Assembly: GCA_963850725.1 (NCBI GenBank)
Contig: CAWKMQ010000022.1
Location: 128,347 to 192,346 of the forward strand
Origin: Vicinamibacterales bacterium
Lineage (GTDB): Bacteria > Acidobacteriota > Vicinamibacteria > Vicinamibacterales > JAMQPK01
Direction: 5' to 3'
Length of the DNA stretch: 64,000 nucleotides
Made by a program: the position numbers and the translations under genes. The notes below the pieces were generated by a model. It saw only the letters and a program-made list of their open reading frames with translations. It was not told the origin of the DNA and searched no databases. Position 1 is the first letter of the stretch; every line of letters starts with the position of its first letter. This document shows positions 1 to 31,661 of the stretch, one piece after another.

Positions 1-2
1 AC

Positions 3-664
3 GTGCTGCCGCTCCTCGACAAGGAAGATCTTCGCCGCACGCCGAAGGCCTTCATCGGCTACAGCGACCTGACGACGGTTCTCACGTACCTGACGACGCT
101 CCATGGCATCGTCTCGTTCCACGGTCCGATGCTGGATCGGAGGCTCGGCCGTGGCGTCGAGGGCTACGATCGCGACTCGTTCGTCCGCGCGCTGACCCAG
201 GCAGAGCCGCTCGGCGAGCTTGGCGGCGGCCACGCTCGAGGCGCTTCGACCGGGAGAAGCGGCGGGGCCGCTGATGGGCGGGACGCTGGCGCAGCTCGTG
301 GCGTCGCTCGGCACGCCCTACGCGTTCAAGCCGCCGCAAGGGCCACATCCTCTTTCTCGAAGACGCCGGCGAGCGTCCGTATCGGCTCGATCGCATGCTG
401 ACGCAGCTGCGCCTGGCGGGTGTCGTCGACTCGGCATCGGCGGTCGTGCTCGGCGAGTTCAAGGATTGCGATGAGCCACGCGGAGAGCCGTCGGCGAAGG
501 GTGTGCTGGCGGCGTTACTGAAGGACTTCGAGGGGCCGGTGGTTTACGGCTTTCCGTCGGGACACACAACCGCGCCGTTCGTGACGCTGCCGTTCGGCGT
601 GCGCGCGCGCGTCGTCGCAAACGGACGGTCGCGGTTGATTATCGAAGAGGCGGGCGTCGAGTGA
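3..664 (+). CDS. ldcA: LD-carboxypeptidase (muramoyltetrapeptide carboxypeptidase, peptidase S66). The 5' end is cut by the window edge and the reading passes through three frames.
   Basis: ORFs 3..401, 220..474 and 395..664 together give the S66 motifs: FIGYSDLTT (Ser nucleophile), HILFLEDAGERPYRLDRML and FPSGHT. Frame switches lie near 215 and at GGG 340-342. Confidence 0.8.
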
Positions 665-2058
665 CGATTCATTTCATCGGTGTATGCGGGACGGCTATGG
701 CGACACTGGCGGCGCTGTTGAAGCGCAAGGGCCACGACGTGCAGGGCTCCGACGAGAACGTCTATCCGCCGATGAGCACGTTTCTGGAATCCGAGAAGAT
801 TCGGACGCTTTCCGGCTATCGCGCGGAACACATCACGCCGAGCATCGATCTGGTGGTCGTCGGCAACGCGATTTCCCGTGGGAACATCGAGCTCGAGATC
901 GTGCTCGACCGGAAGGTGCGGTACTGCTCGCTGCCCGAAGCCGTCAGGGAACACTTTCTCTGGGACGCGACGTCGATTGTCATCGCGGGCACACACGGCA
1001 AGACGACCACGACGTCGCTGGCCGGCTGGCTGCTCGTGCACGGCGGCCTGGACCCGAGCATTCTGGTGGGCGGCATCGCCCGCAACCTCGGGGACGATGG
1101 ATCGAGCTATCGGCTGGGCCAGGGCCGCGAGTTCGTCATCGAGGGCGATGAATACGACAGCGCCTACTTCGACAAGACGGCGAAGTTCCTGAAGTACCTG
1201 CCGGACATCGCCGTCATCAACAACGTCGAGTTCGATCACGCCGACATCTACAGCGATCTCGACGCCGTGCGGCTGGCGTTCCGGCGGCTCGTCAACCTCG
1301 TGCCGCGCACCGGACTGCTGTTGCTCGGGGCCGATTCGCCAGACGCGCTGGCGTTGAAGAAATGGGCCGTGAGCCCCGTCGAGACATTCGGACTCGACGA
1401 ATCATCCGACTGGCGCGCATCGGATATCACCGTCTCGAACGCGGGGCAGTCGTTCAACGTACTGCATCAGGGGTCGCTGTTCGGCGCGATGCGGCTTCCG
1501 CTCTTCGGTGCGCACAACGTTCGCAACGCGCTTGCCGCGATCGCGGTGGCGCATACCGTCTCCGTGCCGGCGGCGCTCATCGCCGAAGGGCTGGCGAGTT
1601 CCAGGGTGTGAAGCGCCGGCTCGAGATCTACGGCGAGGCGGCTGGAGTGACCGTGTACGATGACTTCGCCCACCACCCGACCGCCATCGCCGAGACGCTG
1701 GCGGGTCTCCGCGCGGCGAATCCTCATAAGCGCATCTGGGCCATTTTCGAGCCACGCTCGGCGTCGTCGAGCCGCCGCGTATTCCAGCAGGATTTCGCGC
1801 GCGCGTTCGGACCCGCCGACGAGGTCATCATTGCGCCCGTGTTCCGCACGAGTCTGCCGGAGGCCGAGCGGCTGTCCGCTCAGGAGCTCGTGAGAGACCT
1901 CAAAGGCGCGGGTCAGCGTGCGAGGGCGGCCGCGTCGATCGACGACATCGTGACGACGATCGTGAAAGAGACGAAAAGCCGGAGACCTGGTCGTCTTCAT
2001 GTCGAACGGCGGCTTTGGCGGCATCCATCAGAAAACCCTGCAGGCGCTTGGTGCATGA
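661..2058 (+). CDS. mpl: UDP-N-acetylmuramate:L-Ala-gamma-D-Glu-meso-DAP ligase (murein peptide ligase), with two apparent frameshifts
   Basis: Mur-ligase motifs are present: GVCGTAMATLA, GTHGKTTTTS, EGDEYDSAYFDK and NNVEFDHADIY. The C-terminal part lies in another frame: FQGVKRRLE, DDFAHHPTAI, FEPRS. Frame switches are at TT 1599-1600 and near 1975. The stop overlaps the next start (ATGA at 2055-2058). Confidence 0.85.
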
Positions 2059-2707
2059 GCCAGGGTCGCGTCGCCATTGTGGGAGATACCTGCGTCTCGA
2101 TTGAATTCGGCACGACAATCGATGACGCGATCAATGCGCGATGCGTGGCTTTCGCAAGGTTGCTCGAGGGCCTCGCCCTCGACGGCGTGCGCGACGTCGT
2201 GCCTACGTACAACGCCGTGACGGTCCATTTCGATCCGCGCATGATGAATCGCGGACTCGCTTTGCATAGAAATGAAGGCGCTTGCCGTGCGGACCGTCGG
2301 GCGAAGCGAGCGCCGATACGCGGACCGTCGAAGTGCCGGTGAGCTATGGTGGCGAGGCCGGTCCGGATTTGGCGGCGGTTGCGGCGTTTGCGCGATGTCC
2401 GCAGGACGAGGTGATTGGACTGCACACCGCGACGGAGTACCGCGTGTACATGCTCGGTTTTCTCCCAGGATTCCCATACATGGCAGCGGTGAACGCGAGA
2501 ATCGCCATGCCACGGCTGGATGCGCCGCGTTTACGCGTGCCGGCGGGGTCTGTGGGAATCGCCGGGATGCAGACGGGGATCTATCCGTGCGAGTCGCCTG
2601 GGGGCTGGAGAATCATCGGGAGAACATCGCTCAGACTGTTCGATGCGGCCCGCCCCGAGCCATTTCTGCTGAAAGCCGGCGACCGCGTGAAGTTCGTGGC
2701 AGCGTGA
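2055..2707 (+). CDS. pxpB: 5-oxoprolinase subunit B / KipI-type (allophanate hydrolase subunit 1 family), with one apparent frameshift
   Basis: The N-terminal part sits at the tail of ORF 1362..2342 (VPTYNAVTVHFDP). The rest is ORF 2282..2707 (EYRVYMLGFLPGFPYM, GIAGMQTGIYP). The frame switch is near 2270. Confidence 0.75.
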
Positions 2708-2711
2708 CGCG

Positions 2712-3627
2712 ATGGCGCATCTTTCCATCATTCGTCCGGGGCTGTTCACGACGGTGCAGGATCTCGGGCGTTGGGGCTATCAGTCGCGGGGCGTGCCGGT
2801 GAGCGGCGCCCTCGACTGGTTCTCACATCGTCTGGCGAATCTTCTCGTGGGCAACGATCCCACGGCCGCTGGGCTGGAAGTGACTTTGACGGGACCGCAG
2901 GTTCGATTCGAGCGTGCGACGAGCTTCGCGGTGACCGGCGCGGAGTTTGAGCTGACACTCGACGATCAGATCGTGGAGATGAATCAGGCGGTCGAGGTGC
3001 GGGCGGGATCGGTGTTGCGCTTTGGGGAGCGGATGCGGGGCGCTCGAGCCTACATCTCGGTTGCCGGCGGCGTAGATGTCTCACCGGTTCTCGGGAGCCG
3101 CTCGACACACGTCCTGACCGCGATGGGCGGTCACGAAGGCCGAGCCCTTCGCGTCGGTGATGCGCTGGCTCAAGGAGAAACGGTTCCGGGATCCGTTCTT
3201 GAAATAGCTCCGGGAGCATTTTCAAAGGCGGGGCCACTTTTCCCGTGGCGGAAACTTCGAGTTGTTCCTGTCGACCCGGGGATGGCAAAACATCTGACAG
3301 CGAGCGCGCTTCCGGATTTCGTCGCAGTCGAATCGCATGGGATACCGGCTTGAAGGTGCGACCGTGCCGATCAAAGCGACGGGAGAGCTCGTTTCGACGG
3401 CGGTGCCGACTGGCGCCATCCAGGTGCCGCCCACCGGGCAGCCGATTCTCCTGATGAACGACCACGCGACGACCGGTGGATACCGAATTGCAGGCGTTGT
3501 TATTACGGCGGACCTTCCAGTTGCGGGCCAGCTGGCGCCCGGCGACTGGGTGGAGTTCGAAACATGCTCGGTCGAAGACGCCGACGAGGCGTTGCGCCAA
3601 CGGGAGGCCCTGCTTGGCGCCTCATGA
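2712..3627 (+). CDS. pxpC: 5-oxoprolinase subunit C / KipA-type (allophanate hydrolase subunit 2 family), with one apparent frameshift
   Basis: ORFs 2712..3353 and 3337..3627 carry LFTTVQDLGRWGYQSRGVPVSGALD, GYRLEG and NDHATTGGYR. The frame switch is near 3335. Confidence 0.75.
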
Positions 3628-4553
3628 CGAATTTCTCGCGGCAAATGATGATGGCGTTTGGCGACGGGCGGCTTGCCAGCGAGGCGCCGCTGGCACCATT
3701 GACGACGTTCAAGGTCGGCGGGCCGGCGGAGTGGCTCCTGGAGACGCGATCGTCCGACGAAATCATGGAGGCGCTCCGTATCGCGCACGCCAATGGCGTG
3801 AGGGTGACCCTGCTTGGCGGCGGATCGAATGTGCTCGTCGGCGATCGCGGCGTCCGCGGACTTGTGATCCGGCCCCGTGGCGGGCAAATCGAGCAGCTCG
3901 ACGCCGAGCGCGTGCGCGCCGACGCGGCCACGACCATCAACGGGCTGGTCCGCTGGACCGTCCAGAGGGGAATCGCCGGGCTCGAAGCGTGGGCCGGTAC
4001 GCCCGGCACGGTTGGCGGCGCCATCTTCGGCAACGCGCACTTTGGGGGCCGCCTCATCGGCGAGCTGGTGGAATCGGTGCGGCTCGCCTGCGCCGACGGA
4101 TCGACCCGCGATGTTCCCCGCGACGAAATGGATTTCGGGTACGATCGAAGCCGCTTGCAGAAAACCGGCGAAGTCTTGCTGTCCGCGGTCTTCCGCGTGT
4201 CGTCGGGCGATCCCGCGGCGCTTCGCGACGTAGCCCGCCAGTCGCTCGCGTACCGCAAGAAGACGCAGCCGCTCGACACGCCGAGCGCGGGTTGCATCTT
4301 TCAGAATCCCGAGCGTCAGGATGTGCCGCCGGACATTCCCGCGTCGGCCGGTGCGCTCGTCGATCGAGCCGGGCTGAAAGGCGTCGCGCGTGGCGACGCG
4401 CGCGTCTCTCCGACGCACGGCAACTTCATCGTCAACGAAGGGCGTGCGACGGCAGCCGACATTCGCGGCCTCATCGATTTGTGCCGGTCGCGCGTGAGCG
4501 AGCGGTTTGGCGTCGCGCTACAGGAAGAGATCGTCTACCTGGGAGATTTCTGA
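3624..4553 (+). CDS. murB: UDP-N-acetylenolpyruvoylglucosamine reductase
   Basis: ORF 3564..4553 from the internal Met (MTNFS) carries PLAPLTTFKVGGPAEW, LLGGGSNVLV, AGTPGTVGGAI and SAGCIFQNP. The start overlaps the pxpC stop. Confidence 0.85.
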   Translation: MTNFSRQMMMAFGDGRLASEAPLAPLTTFKVGGPAEWLLETRSSDEIMEALRIAHANGVRVTLLGGGSNVLVGDRGVRGLVIRPRGGQIEQLDAERVRADAATTINGLVRWTVQRGIAGLEAWAGTPGTVGGAIFGNAHFGGRLIGELVESVRLACADGSTRDVPRDEMDFGYDRSRLQKTGEVLLSAVFRVSSGDPAALRDVARQSLAYRKKTQPLDTPSAGCIFQNPERQDVPPDIPASAGALVDRAGLKGVARGDARVSPTHGNFIVNEGRATAADIRGLIDLCRSRVSERFGVALQEEIVYLGDF

Positions 4554-5834
4554 TGTCGAGTTTGTTGATTGAAGGCGGCCGCCCGATCTCGGGAAGAATC
4601 GACGTCGAGGGCAACAAGAACGCCGCGCTTCCGCTGCTGGCGGCGTGCCTGCTGACGACCGAAGAGTGCGTGCTCACGAACATGCCGCGCATCGGCGATG
4701 TCGAGGTCATGGCGAAGCTGCTGACCGAGGTGGGCGCCGAAGTGCATGGCGTCGGCACGACGACGGTGCGCGTGAGGTGCCGCGACATTCTCACATCGGA
4801 GCCGACCAGCGAGCTGGTGGGCAAGCTGCGAGGCTCGGTGCTTCTGCTCGGGCCCGCTGCTGGCGCGTACCGGACGCGCGGTGCTGGCGACCCCGGGCGG
4901 CGACTTCCCGGCACGCCGCACCATCGGCACACACATCGATGCGCTCGTGCACCTCGGGGCGACGGTTCTGCCTTCGACGGGGCATGCGTTGGAGGCCCCT
5001 GACGGGCTGCACCCGGCGTCGATGTATCTCGACGAAGCGTCGGTGACAGGCACCGAGACCGCGCTTCTCGCGGCGGCGACGATCGAGGGCGTCACCGAAA
5101 TCCGTCACGCCGCCACCGAGCCGCACGTGGTCGAGGTGTGCGAGTTCCTGCAGCAGATGGGCGTCGGAATCACCGGCGCAGGATCGTCGACGATCCGCAT
5201 CGAAGGCACGACGCGGCCGAGCGGTGCGACCCACAAGCTGAACGGGGACTACATCGAGGCCGGCAGCTGGGCCGTGGTCGCCGCGGTGACGGGCGGGGCG
5301 ATCGAGGTCCGCGGCGCACGCGCGGAGGACGTCGAAGGGATCGCCTTCGTGCTGAAGCGGATGCGCATCGAATGCACGTTCGAAGACGGTCTCATGACGA
5401 TTCAACCATCGAGCCCGATTGCGGCAGGACGGATTACCACCGGCCTGTGGCCGAGCTTCCCAAGCGATTTCGTCAGCCTCGTCACGGTGCTGGCGACGCA
5501 GGCCGAGGGCCGGACGCTGATTCACGACTGGATGTACGAACTGCGTCTGTTCGCGCTGGAGCAGCTCAGCGGCATGCGGGCCGATCTGTTTCTCTGCGAT
5601 CCCCACCGGATCATCGTGACCGGGCCCAGCAAGCTGCGGGGACGCAAGCTCGACAGCCGCGATCTGCGTTCTGGAATGGCGCTGATTGCCGCCGGGCTGG
5701 CCGCCGAAGGGCAGAGCCGCCTGAGCCCGCTCGAGACCGTCGAACGCGGCTACGGGCACCTGGTCGAGCGGCTCAAGATGCTGGGCGCGCGGGTTGAGCA
5801 GATCGAGCAAAGAGTGCCGCAACCTCAGGTTTGA
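4553..5834 (+). CDS. murA: UDP-N-acetylglucosamine 1-carboxyvinyltransferase, with one apparent frameshift
   Basis: MSSLLIEGGRPISGRIDVEGNKNAALPLLAA sits at the tail of ORF 3476..5002 and continues in ORF 4881..5834. The frame switch is at CCC 4853-4855. The ATG overlaps the murB TGA (TGATG at 4551-4555). Confidence 0.85.
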
Positions 5835-7313
5835 CGACCTTGCCCATGGCGTTTCGCGGCAACTGCGACACGCACGCAAGGTTCCTCGGAATTTTGTAAG
5901 GGGCCAGACGCGTTCTGGCCCATTGTTTCAATTCCTCGAGATCGAGTCTCGCGTCCGGCCGCAGTTCGGCCGCGCAGCAGACGCGCTGACCCCACTCCAC
6001 ATCGTCCACGCCCACGACGACGCACTCGGCAATGGCGGGATGCGTGCGCAGCACCTCCTCGATTTCGAGCGCGGAGATCTTGTGTCCGCCGGATTTGAGG
6101 ATGTCGACGCTCGCGCGTCCGAGCAGGCGATACGCGCCGTCCTCGACGACGGCGGCATCGCCGGTGCGAAACCAGCCATCCACAAACGCCTCTCGTGTGG
6201 CGTCGGGCTGCCTCCAGTATTCCGAGAACACCCCCGGCCCTTTGAGCTGCAGCTCGCCGTCAACGATGCGTGCCGATACTCCGGGCAGGGGCTGGCCGAC
6301 ATACCCGGGCCGCCGATCGCCGTGCAGTGGATTCGAAAGCGCCATCCCGACCTCTGTCATGCCATACCGTTCGAGGAGGACGTGCCCGCTGATCTCCTTC
6401 CATCGATCGAGCACGATTCTGGGAAGCGCCGCGGATCCGCTCATCATCAGGCGCAGCGCGTGGCAGCCGCGCGAGCGTGACTCTCGAATATCCGCCGGCG
6501 CGCCGTCCCACGAACCGATCAGCCGGTGATAGACCGTCGGAACCGCGCTGAACAGCGTGAGCTCGCCCGACGAGAGGCGTTCCCACGTCGATTCGCTCTC
6601 GAACCGGGGCGCCATTTCGAGCACCGCGCCGCTCCAGAGCGCGCACGAGACGATGTTGAGGATTCCGTGCACGTGATGCAGGGGAAGGACGAGCAGCGTG
6701 CGATCGGATGCGGTCCATTCCCAGGCGGTCACGAGCGACTCGATCTGCGCGGTGAGATTGGCGTGCGTCGTGACGACGCCTTTCGGACGGCCGGTCGTGC
6801 CGCTGGTGTAGACGATCAAGGCGCGGCGGTTCATTAGGTTCGTTGGGTTCGTAAAGTTCGTAGAGTTCGTAGGGTTCGTCAGGTTCGTGGAGTCGTAGCG
6901 TCAGGTTCGTCGGGTTCGTAAGGTTCGCGCTCGTGTAGAAGCGCGCGCCTGCCGAGCTCGCGAGGGGCTCGATCGCTGCCTGGTTCTCAGCGTCCGCAAC
7001 CACAATGGACGCGTCCGAATCCTGAATCAGGTACGCGAGCTCGGCCGGTGGGTGAGACAGCGGCAGCGGGACGGCGATGCCGCCGGCGAGCCAGATGCCC
7101 CACTGCACGGCCACGTACTCGAATCCCGGCGTGACGAGAAACGCCGACGCGTGCCTCATCGAGATCGCTGCGCCCGTCGAGCAGTCGCGCTGCCACGTCC
7201 GCCGCCGCGGCGCAAAGCTGATCGTATGTGTAGCGTCCGTTGCGATCGAAAATGGCCGTACGAGTCCCATGAGCGCTTGCGCGCGCCACGATGGCAGGCA
7301 CCACGGGAGCCAT
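5773..7313 (-). CDS. AMP-dependent acyl-CoA synthetase/ligase (malonyl- or fatty-acyl-CoA ligase-like), with two apparent frameshifts and an internal 9-nt repeat array
   Basis: ORF 5773..6834 carries IVYTSGTTGRPKG, YGMTE, TGD and KIPR. The N-terminal part is spread over ORFs 6987..7397 and 6260..7270. The ATG at 7313 lies 1 nt after the secretin stop (TAG-C-ATG). Confidence 0.75.
6837..6930. repeat. Tandem 9-nt array with core GGTTCGT (about 9 units), inside the acyl-CoA synthetase CDS
   Basis: Read directly: ggttcgttg ggttcgtaa agttcgtag agttcgtag ggttcgtca ggttcgtgg, then a 13-nt irregular segment, then ggttcgtcg ggttcgtaa ggttcgcgc. The same core forms the left arm of the array at 49482. 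Confidence 0.9.
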
Positions 7314-7314
7314 G

Positions 7315-9186
7315 CTACTGCGGAGGTGGTGATTGCCCCGGGTTGGGCGGGGCTTGAGGCGCCGGTGGAAGGATCGGGCGCGAGGATGGCAGCCCACTGG
7401 GAGCCGGCCGTTCGGGCAATTCCCCCGGCGGCGGCGCCTGGTCTTCCGGAGGAAGCGGCAGATCCACGCCGCCAGCCGGCGCGGGGCTGACAGGTCCGGC
7501 GCTCGGTCCCGAGTCGCGGCCCATCTGGAAGGCGCGCAGGTCGTCCTCGGTGATGTCGAGCACGCGCACGATGCGCGGTGTCAGCATCAGGATGACGTCG
7601 GTCTGCTGCCGCTCGTTGCTCGAGTGCCCGAAGATGTGCCCGACAGCCGGAATGTCGCTCAGCCCGGGGATTCCATCGCGGACCTTCCGCTCGTCATCAC
7701 GAATCAGGCCGGCGAGCATGTTGGTCTCGCCGTCGCGCAGGCGAATCGTCGTCTTGATGAGCCGGTTGCCGAACGTCGGCAATCCCCCAAATCCCTCGCC
7801 CGAGATGCTCGTCACCGAGATCGCCAGCGCCAGCGTCACGTCGTTGTCCATGTGCGTGCGCGGCGTGATGTCGATGTTGACGCCGATGTTCTCGTAGTTG
7901 AACGACGTAATCGGCTGCTGGTTCACGCCGCCAGTCGCGATGGGCGAGAACGTCGTGACGGGTACCGGCACGCGCTCGCCGAACTGGGCCTGCGCGGCGA
8001 TGCCGACCTGTGACCGGAGCTGGGGATTCGCGAGCACGCGCGTCGCGCGATCCTGCTTGATGAGCCGGTAGTACAGGCCCGGCACGTTGGTCATGAATAC
8101 GTTGGAGGCGGTCAGGTTCTGCAGATCCTGGAGCGTCAGGCCTGGCTTGTTGACGTCGGCCACGCCGTTGATGCCGGCCGAGTTCGGCGACGCGAACTGC
8201 AATCCCCATTCGTTCAGCCGCGTCCGGTTCACCTCGAGCAGCTCGACATCGGTCATCACTTCGGGACGGGCCTTGTCGATCATGCTGATGAGCCGGCCCG
8301 CCGCGTCAATCCGTTCGGCCGTGTCGGTAATGGTGATGGCGTTGGTCCCCGCGATCGCGGCGATACGGCGGGCGTCGATGACGATCCGCAGCATGTCCAT
8401 CGTCTCTTTGACGTCGGCATTGCTGAGATAGAACGTGCGCACCAGGTCTTCTTCGTACTCGCGCCGTTTCGCCGGTGTATCGGGCACGATGGCGATCGTG
8501 CGTGGCGCCGTCACCCGATAGAAGGTCTGCGTGCTGGCAGTAATCGCGCGGAGCGCCTGGTCCAGGGTCTGGTTGCGAATCTCGATGTTGATCGGCTGCG
8601 CGCGGAAGGCCGGGTCGAAGACGACGTTCACTTTTGACATCTGCGCCAGCGCGCGAATGACGATGTCGCTGCTCGCGTTGCGGAAGTTCAGCTCATCCGG
8701 CAAAGGATCGGCCGGAATCGAGATGCCGGGCAGCGGCTGGTCCCGCATGCGCTCGACCAGCGCCTCGAGCTCGGTTTTTCCATCTCTCCGCACCGGCACC
8801 TTGGCGCGGAGCACGCTTTGCGTGTCCGCCAGCTCTTTCTGCACCTGGGCGTTTTCTGGATTGAGCTCGGCGGCCAGCTGATATTCGGCGACCGCTTCGT
8901 CGAGCCGGCCGGTGCCGGCGAGGCGGCGCGCCCGCGTGAAGTGATCCTGCGACGCGCGCAGCTTGGCGCGCTGCAGGCCGGTTCGCGCGTTCACGTCGTC
9001 CGGATTGCTCTGGAGCGCCCGGGTGTACTCGACGACCGCCACGTCGTAGTCCTGCCGGTCTTCGGCTTTGCGTGCTTCCCGAAGCGCCGCGCTGGTAATG
9101 CAACCGGAGATCGTCGCGGCGATCAAGAGAACTGAAATCGATCGCCCGAATGAGAATCGCGCGAGCACCCTAGCGGCCCCCGCCAT
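7315..9186 (-). CDS. Secretin (GspD/PilQ superfamily) with a lipoprotein signal peptide, N-terminal TPR region and Pro-rich C-terminal tail
   Basis: ORF 7315..9249 is read from the internal Met (MAGAARVLARFSF...LLIAATISG|C, a lipobox). It has TPR-like helices (YDVAVVEYTRALQSNPDD, EAVAEYQLAAELNPEN). The secretin core carries ANPQLRSQVG, INIDITPRTH, RLRDGETNMLAGLI, IPGLSDIPAVGHIF and LMLTPRIV. The ORF is intact. Confidence 0.8.
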   Translation of the reverse strand: MAGAARVLARFSFGRSISVLLIAATISGCITSAALREARKAEDRQDYDVAVVEYTRALQSNPDDVNARTGLQRAKLRASQDHFTRARRLAGTGRLDEAVAEYQLAAELNPENAQVQKELADTQSVLRAKVPVRRDGKTELEALVERMRDQPLPGISIPADPLPDELNFRNASSDIVIRALAQMSKVNVVFDPAFRAQPINIEIRNQTLDQALRAITASTQTFYRVTAPRTIAIVPDTPAKRREYEEDLVRTFYLSNADVKETMDMLRIVIDARRIAAIAGTNAITITDTAERIDAAGRLISMIDKARPEVMTDVELLEVNRTRLNEWGLQFASPNSAGINGVADVNKPGLTLQDLQNLTASNVFMTNVPGLYYRLIKQDRATRVLANPQLRSQVGIAAQAQFGERVPVPVTTFSPIATGGVNQQPITSFNYENIGVNIDITPRTHMDNDVTLALAISVTSISGEGFGGLPTFGNRLIKTTIRLRDGETNMLAGLIRDDERKVRDGIPGLSDIPAVGHIFGHSSNERQQTDVILMLTPRIVRVLDITEDDLRAFQMGRDSGPSAGPVSPAPAGGVDLPLPPEDQAPPPGELPERPAPSGLPSSRPILPPAPQAPPNPGQSPPPQ

Positions 9187-9812
9187 CGGTGACGACTTCA
9201 ACGTTGCGCGGCATCTGAAACACGAACTGGTTATCGGCAATGCCGACATTTTCCTTGAAATTCGAGAAGGTGAACGCCGAGCGGCCGCCCTGCGCGTCGA
9301 TCGTGATGAGCATCTGCAAATCCAGTGTTTTGGGCTCGACGACCAGCGTCAACGACTCGGTACTCGGGCTCGCGCCGCTTGGGCGTCAGCTTCAACGCGA
9401 TCGAGCCGGCGGGCGCATCGGGCACCTTGTCGAACGCGGCGTTGAAGTCGCGGGTGAGGTCGCCCTTGCCCGTCAGGAACAGCGCCGGCGTCGGGGCCTG
9501 TTCGTCGCGCGGCATCGTGCCGACGACAACCTGCTTGTCGAGCGGAATGTAGGAGTAGATCTTGCGCCCGTCGGAAACGAAGAGCTTCCGCTCGGGAGCA
9601 GTGTACTCCCATCTCATCTTTCCGGGTTTCTTGACCAGGAGCTTGCCGCGCTCGGTGGCCTGCTGTTTGAGCACGCCGCCACGGTAGGCATGGACGAAGT
9701 CGGCGGAAAAGTCGGCCACCTTGTCGTACCTGCGCTGCAGGTCGCGCGCGAGGGCGTCGGCCGTCTGGGCAGGGGCCGACTGGGCCGCCATGACCCCCGA
9801 CAGGGCCAGCAT
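9170..9812 (-). CDS. LolA-like outer-membrane lipoprotein carrier family protein, with one apparent frameshift. The start codon is uncertain.
   Basis: ORFs 9231..9812 and 9170..9352 carry FSADFVHAYRGG, GKLLVKKPGKMRWEY and VSDGRKIYSYIP. The frame switch is near 9355. A signal-peptide-like stretch (FAFVTAGIMLALSGVMAA) extends upstream of the first ATG without a canonical start. The 3' end overlaps the secretin start by 17 nt. Confidence 0.65.
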
Positions 9813-9867
9813 GATGCCCGCAGTTACGAAGGCGAAGTCCCACGGTACCTTAAAGATAGCACTTTCC

Positions 9868-9900
9868 AGGGCTTAGGGCTCAGGGCTTAGGGCTGAGGGG
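9868..9900. repeat. Heptamer tandem array AGGGCT(T/C/G) (minus sense CCCTAAG/CCCTGAG), 4-5 units
   Basis: Plus strand reads agggctt agggctc agggctt agggctg agggg. On the minus strand, stops fall at TAA 9889-9887 (the DUF2723 stop), TGA 9882-9880 and TAA 9875-9873. Confidence 0.85.
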
Positions 9901-11840
9901 AAAGACGGACCGTCGGGATGGGAGCGAAGATTCCTGAGTCGTAAAGGGTGCGATTCTCGGGACTCAGGGCCCTGAAGCTGATGCCGCGTTCCAGCGTCAG
10001 CTCGTGGCGGCCGTTGACGATGACGTGGCCGAAGCCGGCGCGGCGGATGGTGTCGGTCGGCAGCCAGGACTCCATCCGAATGTCGAGGTCGAACGGCTCG
10101 AATCCGCACGCGCACGCGAAACGGCCGGTCGCTCGTCTGAACGAGCTCGGGGCGCTCGCCGACTCTCCCGGCGATCACGTTGTATTGGCGAAGGGTTGGC
10201 TCCGCGGTCGCGGTGGTCAGGATTTTCCAGCCGCGGCCGACGCTGATGGGATTCAGGGGAAACTCGCGGTCGGGTCGCAGTATCGCGAGCACGTACGGAG
10301 TGCCACCGCGAATCGACTTCAGATCATCGCTGAACTGCAGTTTGTCTGGAGGGGGGTCGTGCTGCCATTGGGACGGGTTCGGGGGGTGGACCTTGTCATA
10401 CGCCCGGCCTGTCAGCACGACGTCGCGCCCGGCTATCGCATTCTCGGCCACGAATATCGCGAATCGATCGCGTCCACCCGGCCACGCCAGCCACGTCAGC
10501 TCCTCGGTGGCAAACCATGGCACGCCCGGCCTGTGCTCGCGCATGAAGTACTCGAACGCGTTCTGCACCTGCCAGTTGCTGTCGACGCCAAACACCGTCG
10601 GACGGTTCGTCGGCGTGAACGCGTGGAGCAGCCGAACGGCGCGGTTATCCTGGCTTCGATCGACGGCCGGAAACGTGTCGTAGCCCCGCCAGGCGGGATA
10701 CAGCAGAAGCACGAACCCCGCCGCGCCGCCACGCCGCGAAGAGGGAGTTGCATGAGCCCGCCGACGAGCGCGGCCACGCCGGCGCCGGCACACAGCGCGA
10801 CGATGTAGTGGGAAGGAAGGAAGAAGATGTAGGCGTCGCCGACGTTGTACGTCCACGCAAACGCGAGGTTTGCCGCATAAGAGCAGCAGAAGCAGCACAC
10901 CTCGTCCCGGCCAGCGGAGGGTGACGTATCCGACTCCCGCAACTGCGAGGAGGATGCCGGGCATGCCGAATTGCTGCCGCAGGTCGAACCAGTACATCGC
11001 CGGACGCGATTGAAGCCCGGTTTCGGACACGTTCATCACGAGCGTTTCGCGCCAGTCCGCTTTGGTGACGTCGAACCAGAACTTGCCGAGCCCTTCGGCG
11101 AGCGACGAAGGCGGCTCGAGGTCGGCCCACAGCCCGCGGAAATTCCAGGCGTATTGAAGCACGCCCAGAAGCGCAATGACGATGGCCATCGCTATCATGC
11201 GGACGCTCAGGGGATCCGTGGGGCCGCGCCGATGCATCAGCAGGAAGATGGCGAACCCCGGCAGAAGCAGCACCATGCTCAAGTGATTGCCGAATCCCAG
11301 GGCGTAGATCGCGTAGAACCACGCGAGCCGTCCGGCCGTCGGCTCGTCGCCCCATGCAAGCAGCGCCAGCATCGATGCGCCCACGAGGAGCAGGTGAAGC
11401 GTATAAACCTCGGCGGTAACGGCCTGCGACCAGAACGTATACGAGAAGGCGAGAAACAGCCCGGCTGCGGCGCCGGCGAAAAGAGACTGGGCCAGCCGCG
11501 CGCCAAGCCACGTCGCCAGGCCCACCGCCATGGCACCGTAGACCGCGGACGCGAGATTCAGGGCGCGCGCGGGCTCGCCGGGATGGAACAGGACGAACAG
11601 GTGGCCGAGGCCGTAATAGAGAGGGTAGGCCTGCCGCGGCGTCAGCGTGAGCGAGCTGACACCGGTTTGAAACGAGGCGCTGTCGCCGAAATCGAGCCCG
11701 GGAAGAAGCGTCGCGTAGTAGCAGAGAAACGCGACAACCGCGACGAGCGCCGAGACTAGCCCTTGGCCAGCGATCCGGGTTCGGGCGGAGCCGAGCGTGG
11801 TGCTTCCTTCGTTTCGATAGGAAAGTTGGCGGCGAGCCAT
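9887..11840 (-). CDS. DUF2723-type polytopic membrane protein (GT-C-like putative glycosyltransferase), with about 3 apparent frameshifts
   Basis: ORF 9873..11840 carries LLPGLDFGDSASFQT, PLYYGLGHLF, NLASAVYGAMAV, TAEVYTLHLLLV and GFGNHLSM. The middle segment is recovered from ORF 10496..10942 (NLAFAWTYNVGDAYIFFLPSHYIVAL). The C-terminus is recovered from ORF 9887..10075. The 5' end overlaps the rhodanese gene by 85 nt, so the start is uncertain. Confidence 0.6.
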
Positions 11841-12127
11841 TCTGGGACCCCGCCTTTGAGGACCCTAATCTTGATCCCCTTGCGCAGCAGCTCGGCCGCT
11901 ACGTGTGTGCTGACGATCTCGTTGGGATCTGAATCGTAGGCGACGATATCGCCGCCGGTCGGGATTGGGACCGATTCGATCGCATATGGCGGCACCCGGA
12001 TGGCGCCCGGCAGCTTGACCGTGCTGTGCTCATACGCGTATTTCAGACGCACGTCGAGGATGGTGGGTTTGTCCCCACGATCCAGACGTTCCTTCAGTTG
12101 TTCTTTGCTGATGCGTTCGACGGGCAC
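11756..12127 (-). CDS. Single-domain rhodanese-homology protein with no cysteine (predicted catalytically inactive)
   Basis: ORF 11756..12127 has a rhodanese layout: ILDVR..Y...H..GA, then IVAYDSDPNEIVSTHVAAELL, then VLKGG...W. Asp sits where the active-site Cys is expected, and the 123-aa product contains no Cys. Confidence 0.65.
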   Translation of the reverse strand: MPVERISKEQLKERLDRGDKPTILDVRLKYAYEHSTVKLPGAIRVPPYAIESVPIPTGGDIVAYDSDPNEIVSTHVAAELLRKGIKIRVLKGGVPEWLAANFPIETKEAPRSAPPEPGSLAKG

Positions 12128-12162
12128 GCGCTATTCTCGCCATGCCCCGGACAGACGTCAAG

Positions 12163-12369
12163 TTAGCGGCTTCGGCGGCCCTTCGGCGCGGCGTGGTGGT
12201 TGGTGGTGGCGGCCACCGGAACCGGAACGAGCTCCGGCCGTTTGGTCCGCACCTCCCACCCGTTCGACCGCTTACCGCAGTGAATGCAGCAAAGAAAGAC
12301 CGAGCCCGACGCGCAGGTGACGCCGAAATCGTGCCGTCCCGACAGGTAGCAGTTCAACAGGTTCCACAT
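12163..12369 (-). CDS. Small CHCC zinc-ribbon-like protein (68 aa), paralog of 18134..18424
   Basis: The core is CYLSGRHDFGVTCASGSVFLCCIHCGKRSNGWEV. An AAGAGG Shine-Dalgarno lies 7 nt upstream of the ATG. It aligns with CRVLGHRNEVAVGSGTVALKCDRCGWRSPGWML. Confidence 0.6.
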   Translation of the reverse strand: MWNLLNCYLSGRHDFGVTCASGSVFLCCIHCGKRSNGWEVRTKRPELVPVPVAATTNHHAAPKGRRSR

Positions 12370-28713: not shown

Positions 28714-30997
28714 ACGACTCCTCCTTAAACCCGGCTTGATGGTGGTGCTCGTCCTGGCAGGACTGTGGGCGACCGGCCGCGCGCCGGTCGGCGCCTTCGG
28801 GCCCGCGCCGGAAACCACTGCCGAGCCGTCGCCGCAGTTGAAGGGACTTTCCGCCAGCGCAGGGCGGCGCATCACGACGGTGACCATCGAGACGACCGAT
28901 CCGGTGGCGTATCTCACGCAGCGGCCGGATCCGAAGACGCTGGTCGTCGATCTGCGCGACGTCGACGCCGCGCGGGCGGCCAGCGTGGTGCTCGGCGCCA
29001 AAGGCCTGGTGGCGGGCGCTTCGGTCGAAAAAGCGACGGGTGCCGACGGCGCGCGCGTGGCGCGCGTCCGGATCCATCTCACGCAGGCGGCGGCGCATCA
29101 GGTGCGGACCAAGCGCAACCTGATCTATGTCGACTTCGACAGCGCGTTCGCGGCCGACAGCCTCGGCAATGCGCGTGCCCGCCGGCGCTCCGCGCGTGGC
29201 GCCGACGCGCTACGCGACCATGCTCGAAAGCATGCGCGCCGAGCCGAAGCCAACGGGCGCGAGCATCACGCTCGTCGGCAACGGCGAGCTCGTGGCGGCG
29301 TCGGTGACGCCGATGAGCGATGGCACGCCGCGAATCGTGCTCGGACTTTCCGAACGTCAAGTCGACGGCGCCCGATGAAATCGCCGTCGGCCGCGGGCCG
29401 GTGTCCGTCGTGCACGTCGCCACGTCAGGCTCGACGTCGGTGCCGACGACGCGGGTGACGATCGACCTGATGCGACCCGCGACCTATCGAGTCATTCCGC
29501 CGGACGACTTCGGCCGGACCTACACGATCCTGCTCGAGGAAGAGGCCGCGGCCCTGGTGATGCCGCCGGCGCCGGCCGCGACGACGCCCGGCAGCAATAC
29601 CGTGGCCGCGCTCGATCCGATTAACGCGCTGCTGTCGCGCAGCGCGGCCGGTCCGGCACGGGGCACGGGCCCGCTGGCGCAGGCGCCGCAGGGGGCGACG
29701 CCGCAGTTGCCGGCGTCGGCTCCGGCTCAAGGCGCGCAGCCGCGCTTCACCGGCCATCCGGTGTCGCTGGAATTCGAAAGCGCGGATCTGCGGACGGTGC
29801 TTCGCACGTTCGCGAACATCAGCGGGCTGAACATCGTGATCGATCAGTCGGTGCAGGGCGCCGTCGACGTCTCGCTGCACGAAGTGCCGTGGGACCAGGC
29901 GCTCGACATCATCCTGCGCGATCACAAGCTGGGCTATTCGGTCGACGGGACGATCGTGCGCATCGCGCCGCTCGCCGTGCTGGCCGACGAGGAAGGGCAG
30001 CGCCGCAAGCTGGCCGAAGAGCGCGCGCTCGCGGGCGAGCTCGAGCTGCTGACCCGCCCGCTCAGCTACGCCAAGGCGGCCGAGCTGACGCCGCTTCTGA
30101 CGCGCACCGCGCTGTCGTCGCGCGGCGATATCCAGGTCGATCCGCGGACCAACACCATCATCATCCGCGACCTGGCCAGCCGGCTTCAGGGCGCGTCGGC
30201 GCTGATCGATTCGCTCGATCGGCCGCAGCCGCAGGTCGAAATCGAAGCGCGGATCATCCAGACCACGCGCGACTACGCGCGCAAGCTCGGCGTGCAGTGG
30301 GGGTTCAACGGCCGCGTGGCGCCCGACCTCGGCAACACGACGGGCCTGGCGTTTCCGAATCAGGGAGCGATTGGCGGACGGACCGGTGGAGTCGCAGGGC
30401 AGCCGGTGCGGATGCCGACGTCGACCGCCGTGGACCTCGGCGTGAACACGGCGAGCAGCGCCATCGGGCTGGCGCTGGGTTCGGTCAACGGCGCCTTCAA
30501 CCTCGACGTGGTGCTGACGGCGCTCGAGGAATCGGGCAACGGCCGCATCCTGTCGACGCCGCGCGTGGCGACGCAGAACAACGTGCCCGCGGAAATCACC
30601 CAGGGCGTGCAGATTCCGATTCAGACGGTGGCCAACAACACCGTCACCGTGTCGTTCCGCGACGCGGCGCTCAAGCTGAACGTGACGCCGCAGATCACCG
30701 CGGCGAACACCGTGATCATGAGCATCGTGCTCGAGAACTCGTCGCCCGACTTCAGCCGTGCGGTCACCGGCATTCCGCCCATCAACACGCAGCGCGCGGT
30801 GACCTCGCTGCTCGTCTCGGACGGACAGACGTCGGTGATCGGCGGCATCTACATCAATTCGCGCGATTCGTCGATCGATCGAGTACCCCGGGGTCTACAA
30901 GATTCCGCTTCTGGGCTGGCTGTTCCAGCGGCGCGAGCTGACCGACGAGACCCGCGAGCTGCTGATCTTCATCACGCCGCGCATCATCAAGGGCTAG
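28703..30997 (+). CDS. pilQ: Type IV pilus secretin PilQ with two AMIN domains, with 3 apparent frameshifts
   Basis: Assembled from ORFs 28703..29458, 29127..29378 and 29320..31341. Motifs are VSLEFESADLRTVLRTFANISGLNIVID, secretin_N repeats, LSTPRVATQNN, LNVTPQIT, and the terminal GVYKIPLLGWLF...LLIFITPRIIKG* in a third frame. Frame switches lie near 29170, near 29342 and at CCCCGGGG 30886-30893. Confidence 0.85.
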
Positions 30998-30999
30998 CC

Positions 31000-31661
31000 A
31001 TGGGCAAAGGGAGAAGAGTGGACATGCGCGCAGTTATTCGTTCGGGAATCGCAGGCGCGGCGGTGGCTGTCGCGCTGGCCGGTTCGATCTCGTGCGGCGA
31101 CGTGGCGCGAACGGGGAAGTCGCCCTCGATGATCGTCATCGATTCGCTGCAGGCCGCGTCGGGCGCCGATCCAGGCAGCCTGAGCGGATTTCTGCTGTCG
31201 GACGTCGTGACGCTGGTGGAACAGACCATCAACGGCGAGACCGTGCAGAGTGCCGACCATCTTCAACGACGTCGGGCAGGCGACGTTGCGGTTGATCCTG
31301 AAAGATCAGGGCGCCGGCCGGCGCGCTGCCGACGACCTTGAACGCCGTGACGTTGAACCGCTATCACATCAACTACCGCCGGGCGGATGGACGCAATACG
31401 CCCGGGGTGGATGTGCCATGGCCGGTCGACGGCGGGGTGACGGCGACGCTGACCGGCGGCACGGTGGTCGTCCCGTTCGAGATGGTCCGCCACCAGGCCA
31501 AGCTCGAAGCGCCGCTTCGCGCCATGGCCTTTGGCGGCGGCCGCATCTTCATCTCGACGATTGCCGAGGTCACGTTCTACGGAACGGATCTCGCCGGGAA
31601 CGAGGTGCAGGCGTTGGGCACCATCAGCGTGAGCTTCGGCGATTACGGAGACCCAGAATAG
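31000..31661 (+). CDS. Hypothetical lipoprotein downstream of pilQ, with 2 apparent frameshifts
   Basis: Signal peptide ending LAGSISC. The reading continues through ORFs 31250.. and 31338..31661 (VTLNRYHINYRRADG...VSFGDYGDPE). I recognise no family. Confidence 0.5.

Follow-up and report, generated by a model that had tools for sequence, protein, structure and literature searches.

A predicted lolA-liposecretin operon and its lineage-variable gene neighborhood in Vicinamibacterales

The DNA considered here is a stretch of 64,000 nucleotides from contig CAWKMQ010000022.1 (positions 128,347 to 192,346; hereafter, the window). It belongs to a metagenome-assembled genome (MAG) of a soil bacterium of the Vicinamibacterales (Acidobacteriota), with 65% GC and a completeness score of 73%. 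On its minus strand, six packed genes at 5773-12369 include lolA and, overlapping the end of lolA, a gene for a secretin that is built as a lipoprotein with tetratricopeptide repeats (TPR). The first-pass annotation of the window took the six genes for a possible envelope lipid, lipoprotein or glycoconjugate export module. The gene orders of relatives point to a smaller conserved unit, a predicted two-gene operon in which lolA is followed by the liposecretin gene.

The lolA-secretin locus

The genes are listed below in the direction of the minus strand, with the sources of each assignment in brackets, and end with the gene that faces them.

12163-12369, minus strand: Cys/His mini-protein, 68 aa, probable zinc ribbon (tblastn)
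11756-12127, minus strand: Cys-less rhodanese-homology protein, 123 aa, cytoplasmic (Pfam, synteny)
9887-11840, minus strand: DUF2723/TMEM260-like predicted GT-C glycosyltransferase, about 655 aa (Pfam PF11028, AlphaFold2 (AF2), Foldseek)
9170-9812, minus strand: lolA (Pfam LolA, TIGR00547)
7315-9186, minus strand: TPR-lipoprotein secretin of the "short" clade, 623 aa, intact (Pfam, PDB profiles, AF2, Foldseek)
5773-7313, minus strand: acyl-CoA synthetase (ACS) of the ANL family, MatB/PRK07787-like (Pfam)
4553-5834 (start approximate), plus strand: murA, convergent on the operon end (tblastn synteny, translations of open reading frames (ORFs))

All six genes are present as first described, the junctions first given for them are exact, and the domain assignments hold in a Pfam search of the six products. 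The TAG of the secretin gene (7317-7315) is followed by one base (c) and then by the ATG of the ACS gene (7313-7311). The frame-corrected lolA ends with a TAG at 9172-9170 and the secretin gene starts with an ATG at 9186-9184, which gives an overlap of 17 nt. The stop codon of the DUF2723 gene, TAA, lies at 9889-9887. No terminator-like sites were found at the gene junctions of the locus, and the promoter and terminator scan was otherwise uninformative. Within about 10 kb of the locus there are no ATPase, platform or pilin genes. The first reading that no pilus or type II secretion system (T2SS) genes adjoin the secretin is thus confirmed, the pilMNOPQ genes being about 17-20 kb away, and the secretin is distinct from the pilQ of the window, a separate gene at 29320-31341.

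The secretin starts with a lipobox (LLIAATISG/C, Cys29), followed by about 2.5 TPR (approx. 35-130), an N0 domain (approx. 166-235), a single N1 domain (approx. 249-308), the secretin domain (376-541) and a disordered Pro-rich tail. Pfam matches include Secretin (PF00263, 4.9e-36), Secretin_N (6.9e-10), TPR_11 (4.2e-9) and a weak STN/FecR_C match, which is N0-like, and the PDB profile matches are GspD, PilQ and RcpA. In the AF2 model, the TPR and N0 regions reach a pLDDT of 88-97, and most of the C-terminal tail stays below 50. A PF00263 domain preceded by N0/N1 ring-building domains places the protein in the secretin superfamily. Its sub-type could not be assigned by structure, as the top Foldseek matches are secretins of type IV pili (T4P), the T2SS and the type III secretion system (T3SS) alike, together with the N0 domain of PilQ. 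It is not a typical GspD: the best NCBIfam match, TIGR02517, scores 159 bits (cut-off 351), there is only N0 and one N1, and no gsp genes adjoin it. Nor is it a typical PilQ, with 99 bits on TIGR02515 (cut-off 284), no AMIN match and no pilMNOPQ context. The scores lie far below the equivalog cut-offs of GspD, PilQ, SctC and MshL.

All full-length orthologues (65/65) have the lipobox Cys, and the +2 residue is Ala in 36 of 40 and never Asp. The conservation of both the lipobox and the TPR in all orthologues supports the earlier proposal of a lipo-secretin with a TPR module that would be self-piloting. A candidate tail motif, P-[ILV]-x-P-P, was dropped, as it occurs in only 26/40 and is a permissive pattern in Pro-rich sequence.

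The lolA gene of the window matches Pfam LolA at 7.8e-25, and an intact orthologue from a relative (G006) scores 137.3 bits on TIGR00547, above the equivalog cut-off of 112. Each of the six genomes searched has this PF03548 locus and no other. A single LolA-family gene is present in 9/10 Vicinamibacteria of the phylum sample, compared with two in many other Acidobacteria. A lipobox Cys is missing from the signal peptide, as in a periplasmic protein that is not a lipoprotein. The gene is therefore best annotated as the housekeeping periplasmic lipoprotein carrier. The "LolA-like" partner of the first-pass annotation does belong to the LolA family, and a specialized LolA paralogue was rejected on the single-copy status and the equivalog-level score. 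The reading frame of lolA is broken by a 1-nt frameshift near 9360, an indel relative to a close relative. The actual start codon probably lies upstream of 9812, as the signal peptide is cut short and indels abound in the 5′ region. A 7-nt repeat, AGGGCTT (4.6 copies, 9867-9899), covers the stop codon of DUF2723 and the gap between this gene and lolA; the 5′ end of lolA, just downstream of this array, is the most indel-rich stretch relative to relatives, which leaves the start uncertain.

Conservation of the pair and of its neighbors

Conservation was assessed on the orthologous locus from 16 relatives and 80 further species-level genomes. In 79/80 Vicinamibacterales species loci, lolA lies immediately upstream of the secretin gene on the same strand, and the sole exception has just 51 nt of upstream sequence. 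The sister order within the class shows the adjacency as well, in 30/30 loci with different flanks, and has the secretin in 39/41 genomes. The link between the two genes that had been noticed in the window is thus real and deeply conserved. Its geometry is conserved as well: a distance of 40-94 nt (median 58) separates the lolA stop from the lipobox Cys codon downstream in 68/69 species, and the frame offset between the two genes is identical in 64/69. Because a lipoprotein signal peptide needs roughly 40-94 nt, the genes overlap or abut almost everywhere. Outside Vicinamibacteria, direct lolA-secretin adjacency is gone from the Acidobacteriota genomes. The literature search found no paper on a lolA-secretin operon.

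The remaining genes behave differently. The full six-gene order is confined to the window's own genus, and only the lolA-secretin order is kept across families and orders, so that a conserved six-gene lipid or glycoconjugate export module is ruled out by the synteny. At this locus, the ACS gene occurs in the window's own genus only and is best read as a genus-specific insertion between the secretin gene and murA. DUF2723 is present at the locus in about 35/80 species. Among 12 genomes checked, it lies directly upstream of lolA in the 4/4 that have it, and no copy was found elsewhere in the genome (E <= 1e-10) in the 8/8 without it at the locus. The rhodanese gene is conserved upstream of lolA across the order, and it is often paired there with the mini-protein gene in many families; in one genome (G022), the mini-protein orthologue (L036 10628-10858) is immediately upstream of lolA. 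In several other families of Vicinamibacterales, a PolX/PHP gene separates rhodanese from lolA (or from DUF2723). Examples are L035 10618-12234, L031 3612-5300 and L032 3662-5344, which encode proteins of about 540-560 aa with DNA_pol_B_thumb and PHP domains. In nearly all Vicinamibacterales, murA is convergent downstream and is followed by murB, pxpBC, mpl, ldcA and nagZ. As neighbors come and go between lineages, the region is read from these gene orders as a syntenic housekeeping (peptidoglycan-gene) backbone with insertions and losses of genes. The mini-protein, rhodanese, GT-C and ACS genes are lineage-variable neighbors and not parts of one machine.

Among these neighbors, the DUF2723 protein matches the TMEM260-like family PF11028 at 6.4e-19. 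Modeled by AF2, an orthologue with 90% identity (pLDDT 88, pTM 0.90) gives Foldseek matches to ArnT, PglB/STT3, DPY19, ALG9 and Pmt4 with TM scores of 0.42-0.54, and the first periplasmic loop holds an invariant D50-x-G52-D53. By its modeled fold, the protein is a GT-C glycosyltransferase encoded by an accessory gene, in line with the TMEM260-related, GT-C-like membrane protein first proposed. Glycosylation of the secretin tail by this enzyme was considered and rejected, the Ser+Thr fraction of the tail being 0.038 in DUF2723-positive species vs 0.084, a comparison that is not corrected for phylogeny. No paper on bacterial DUF2723 was found in the literature search.

The rhodanese matches Pfam at 4.7e-9 and the NCBIfam model rhodanese_LYCAU below threshold. 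Its 123-aa product has no Cys at all and carries YDSDPNE as the active-site loop, hence no catalytic Cys. The mini-protein has the core MW.LLNC..[CS].RH……C.HCG.RSNGW, gives tblastn matches of 45-96% identity in >35 species and has no Pfam family match; it is probably a zinc ribbon. Neither the mini-protein nor the Cys-less rhodanese matches a Pfam family of known function. The ACS matches AMP-binding (2.3e-64) and AMP-binding_C, and its NCBIfam matches, to generic acyl-CoA or malonyl-CoA synthetase models, are all below cut-off. Inside its coding region, Tandem Repeats Finder (TRF) detected a 9-nt tandem array, GGTTCGTAA, with about 10.7 copies at 6828-6927. In the protein, this repeat gives a low-complexity stretch (…NLTNPTNLT…EPYELYELYEPNEPNEP), inserted after the N-terminal part and ahead of the TSGTTGxPKG motif. 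Compared with a relative of ~96% identity (about 94-96% in two aligned pieces), the array is rich in indels, and one of the frameshifts lies in it.

The secretin family and its candidate machines

The TPR-lipoprotein secretin family is present in 102/121 Acidobacteriota genomes, and the papers searched hold no published description of it. Its tree has three clades, the order between which is not settled: the lolA-linked short secretins of Vicinamibacteria, long secretins that end in a cohesin domain, and further short secretins from other classes. Placed in this tree, the short secretin of the window is an extra paralogue within an Acidobacteriota-wide family.

Secretins of two of these clades occur in family f46, which belongs to another acidobacterial class (about 43% GC). 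The third-clade short secretins of f46 (L124-L126) are preceded by genes for a FadL-like outer-membrane protein and a 600-aa long-chain acyl-CoA synthetase and followed by rsmA, uppP and ftsK. Orthology with the short secretin of Vicinamibacteria, which would tie ACS to the secretin, was considered; the two fall in separate clades of the tree, and nothing is inferred from this neighborhood. At other f46 loci (L130/L131), the single lolA heads the long-secretin cluster in the order lolA, extracytoplasmic function (ECF) sigma factor, anti-sigma factor, x, gspF, gspE, pilMNOP, TPR-secretin and pseudopilins. This gene order ties lolA physically to a TPR-liposecretin for a second time, independently of the pair in Vicinamibacteria.

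In Pfam terms, the cluster of the long clade comprises T2SSF, T2SSE (+MshEN), PilM, PilN, PilO/GspM, a 198-aa protein, the secretin and pseudopilins, and a GspE-like cluster is present in 29/31 relatives. The distribution of secretins and motors is clearest in a complete genome, G028, which has four secretins (PilQ, an Msh-like one, the long and the short TPR-secretin) and three assembly ATPases (PilB, GspE-like and MshE-like), each of which adjoins or pairs with another secretin. Its remaining ATPases are PilT-like. Because the three assembly ATPases are already paired, the short secretin has no motor of its own. A Tad system with a fused TadD-RcpA was also considered and rejected, as G028 has no CpaF-type locus and the leftover ATPases are PilT-like. 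The paralogues of the secretin belong to canonical T2SS-like clusters, so that its own partner is likely to be a canonical machine with genes elsewhere in the genome.

Losses of one or the other paralogue can also be followed. In G029, which is 99% complete, a deletion (L142; G029:C36, 12881-13275) has removed the PilP-like gene along with the long secretin, of which just the final 53 codons survive, fused into a 137-aa ORF; the rest of the cluster (gspF, gspE, pilMNO and pseudopilins) is intact, and the short secretin is kept. This genome has a single T2SSE-family ATPase and no PilB, though its pilMNOPQ is intact (L143). The reverse is seen in G027 and G097, two genomes of one genus, where rhodanese-lolA faces murA without the short secretin and the long secretin is kept. 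These complementary losses fit a partial redundancy of the short and long paralogues and are not a proof of it.

Interpretation and comparison with known systems

We consider it rather probable that the locus encodes a self-piloted, Lol-dependent liposecretin, which is co-expressed with lolA and serves a filament machine encoded elsewhere. There is precedent for the two main elements of this explanation: the liposecretin HxcQ is self-piloted by its lipid anchor (Viarre 2009, cited in PMC12475490), and secretin biogenesis is Lol-dependent to varying degrees (PMC3230066). In the short secretin, the lipid anchor and the TPR module would stand in for the separate TPR-lipoprotein pilotins of the PilF/PilW/Tgl/TadD type, on which other secretins depend. 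After Sec export and lipidation, LolCDE would pass the 65-kDa liposecretin to LolA, which would ferry it to the outer membrane, where it would multimerize into a gated pore with a short N0-N1 periplasmic vestibule. The gene overlap would couple the supply of the chaperone to a bulky, multimerizing and potentially toxic client, and it would also lead to constitutive expression of the pore. The partner of the pore, in trans, would be a type-IV-filament machine, for which the T2SS-like cluster is the likeliest candidate.

Several points weigh against this explanation. First, none of the ATPase types is found in all genomes that carry the short secretin: G011 keeps it without a detectable GspE-like cluster or long secretin, and G029 and G025 show no PilB. 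With no ATPase type tracking the secretin, the pore could be independent of a motor. Second, the deletion in G029 took the PilP-like gene too, which would dock a secretin. Third, lipidation and self-piloting are deduced from the sequence alone, and the TPR region shows no specific similarity to solved pilotins in the PDB, only generic TPR matches. Finally, the relatives sampled are mostly MAGs, so that absences are soft evidence.

The short secretin could instead be a stand-alone channel, such as a polysaccharide "nozzle" or a DNA-uptake pore, in which case its tie to Lol would be ordinary sorting and its adjacency to lolA inherited synteny, without a role in regulation. Polysaccharide exporters of the PelB/PgaA/BcsC type combine TPR with an outer-membrane channel, a layout that the secretin shares, and the backbone with its convergent murA is strongly syntenic in nearly all Vicinamibacterales. 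Secretins are also described as slime nozzles of myxobacteria and cyanobacteria (PMC12475490). However, the pair survives the changed flanks of the sister order, the overlap with its fixed frame offset argues for selection on coupling, and no polysaccharide synthase or Wza-type genes adjoin the locus, which together make such a channel unlikely.

Another alternative is dedicated Lol-coupled export, in which LolA would hand lipoprotein or lipid cargo to the TPR arm of a motor-less secretin for passage to the cell surface, and the GT-C enzyme and ACS, where present, would modify the cargo. The secretin would then be a motor-independent outer-membrane conduit fed directly by LolA, with surface lipoproteins or lipid-linked molecules as its cargo, in a phylum that, to our knowledge, has neither LolB nor Slam. 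If true, this would explain why the overlap with the only lolA of the genome has lasted for the whole history of the class and why the secretin persists whichever motor is lost. It agrees with the lack of an ATPase of its own, with the lolA that heads the long-secretin cluster of a different class (f46), with the position of DUF2723, which always adjoins lolA where present, and with a weak similarity, below threshold, between the TPR region of the secretin and that of Slam. T2SS secretins are, moreover, known to pass surface lipoproteins. Against it, lolA is the sole copy and must carry the general lipoprotein traffic, and two near-complete genomes have lolA without the secretin, which places the secretin outside the core Lol route. 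ACS and DUF2723 occur patchily and can be dispensed with, the conserved N0 suggests docking to a platform of the PilP/GspC type, and the Pro-rich tail of DUF2723-positive species has less Ser+Thr, not more. We regard this export route as highly doubtful.

The frames of the locus raise a separate question, as single-base frameshifts break ACS (2), lolA (1) and DUF2723 (3 or more; near 10880, 10722, 10324 and 10102). Each position is a 1-nt indel relative to the ~96%-identical relative (about 94-96% in two aligned pieces). The frames of the lolA, DUF2723 and ACS orthologues are intact in near-identical relatives, the housekeeping genes mpl, pxpBC, murB and murA are also split by frameshifts (window 1-5834 and throughout), and the closest relatives of the source genome are long-read MAGs. 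For these reasons, the shifts in lolA, DUF2723 and ACS are likely errors of long-read assembly, and the completeness score is itself probably lowered by frameshifts in an unpolished long-read assembly. Decay of the locus by real pseudogenization of the three genes, suggested by at least 7 frame-disrupting 1-nt indels inside 6.6 kb, is scarcely credible, given that lolA is single-copy and normally essential, that mpl and murA in the same window are shifted as well, and that the genome is just 73% complete while its closest relatives carry intact genes.

A secretin that is predicted to be self-piloted, and whose gene overlaps the only lolA of the cell, offers a natural experiment on the matching of large lipoprotein clients to the Lol chaperone. 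In soils, Vicinamibacteria belong to the most abundant bacteria, and their envelope biogenesis and secretion are almost unstudied. The analysis flags a TPR-liposecretin family that spans the Acidobacteriota and corrects an attractive but unsupported six-gene export module. Should the pore prove truly motor-free, it would provide a new way of crossing the outer membrane.

The lolA-secretin pair is nevertheless a variant of known things. HxcQ of the Hxc T2SS of P. aeruginosa (Viarre 2009, cited in PMC12475490) is a lipoprotein secretin whose anchor replaces a pilotin and which takes the Lol route, as is predicted for the window secretin. HxcQ lies inside its own T2SS operon, without TPR and without a link to lolA, whereas the gene of the window secretin overlaps lolA and stands apart from any motor, and the protein adds a TPR arm at one end and a Pro-rich tail at the other. 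The pairs PilQ-PilF/PilW/Tgl of type IVa pili (T4aP) and RcpA-TadD of the Tad system (PDB 8ODN, PMC10499894) combine a lipid-anchored TPR and a pore in two proteins, functions that the window secretin, as a predicted lipoprotein, would join in one chain. The long paralogue of Acidobacteriota (L040, L130) has the same lipobox-TPR-N0-N1-secretin layout at about 35% identity, but it ends in a cohesin domain and lies within a motor cluster, whereas the short one ends in a Pro-rich tail and lies behind lolA. The housekeeping lolA of E. coli (ftsK-lolA-rarA) is likewise single-copy and equivalog-level, with a cleavable signal peptide; it is not coupled to any client gene, in contrast to the lolA of Vicinamibacteria, which overlaps one lipoprotein client. 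Among the neighbors, the DUF2723 protein shares the GT-C fold and the acidic loop-1 motif with ArnT, PglB/STT3, PMT and TMEM260; it differs from these enzymes in a distinct C-terminal domain of about 250 aa, and its gene is accessory, absent from most relatives.

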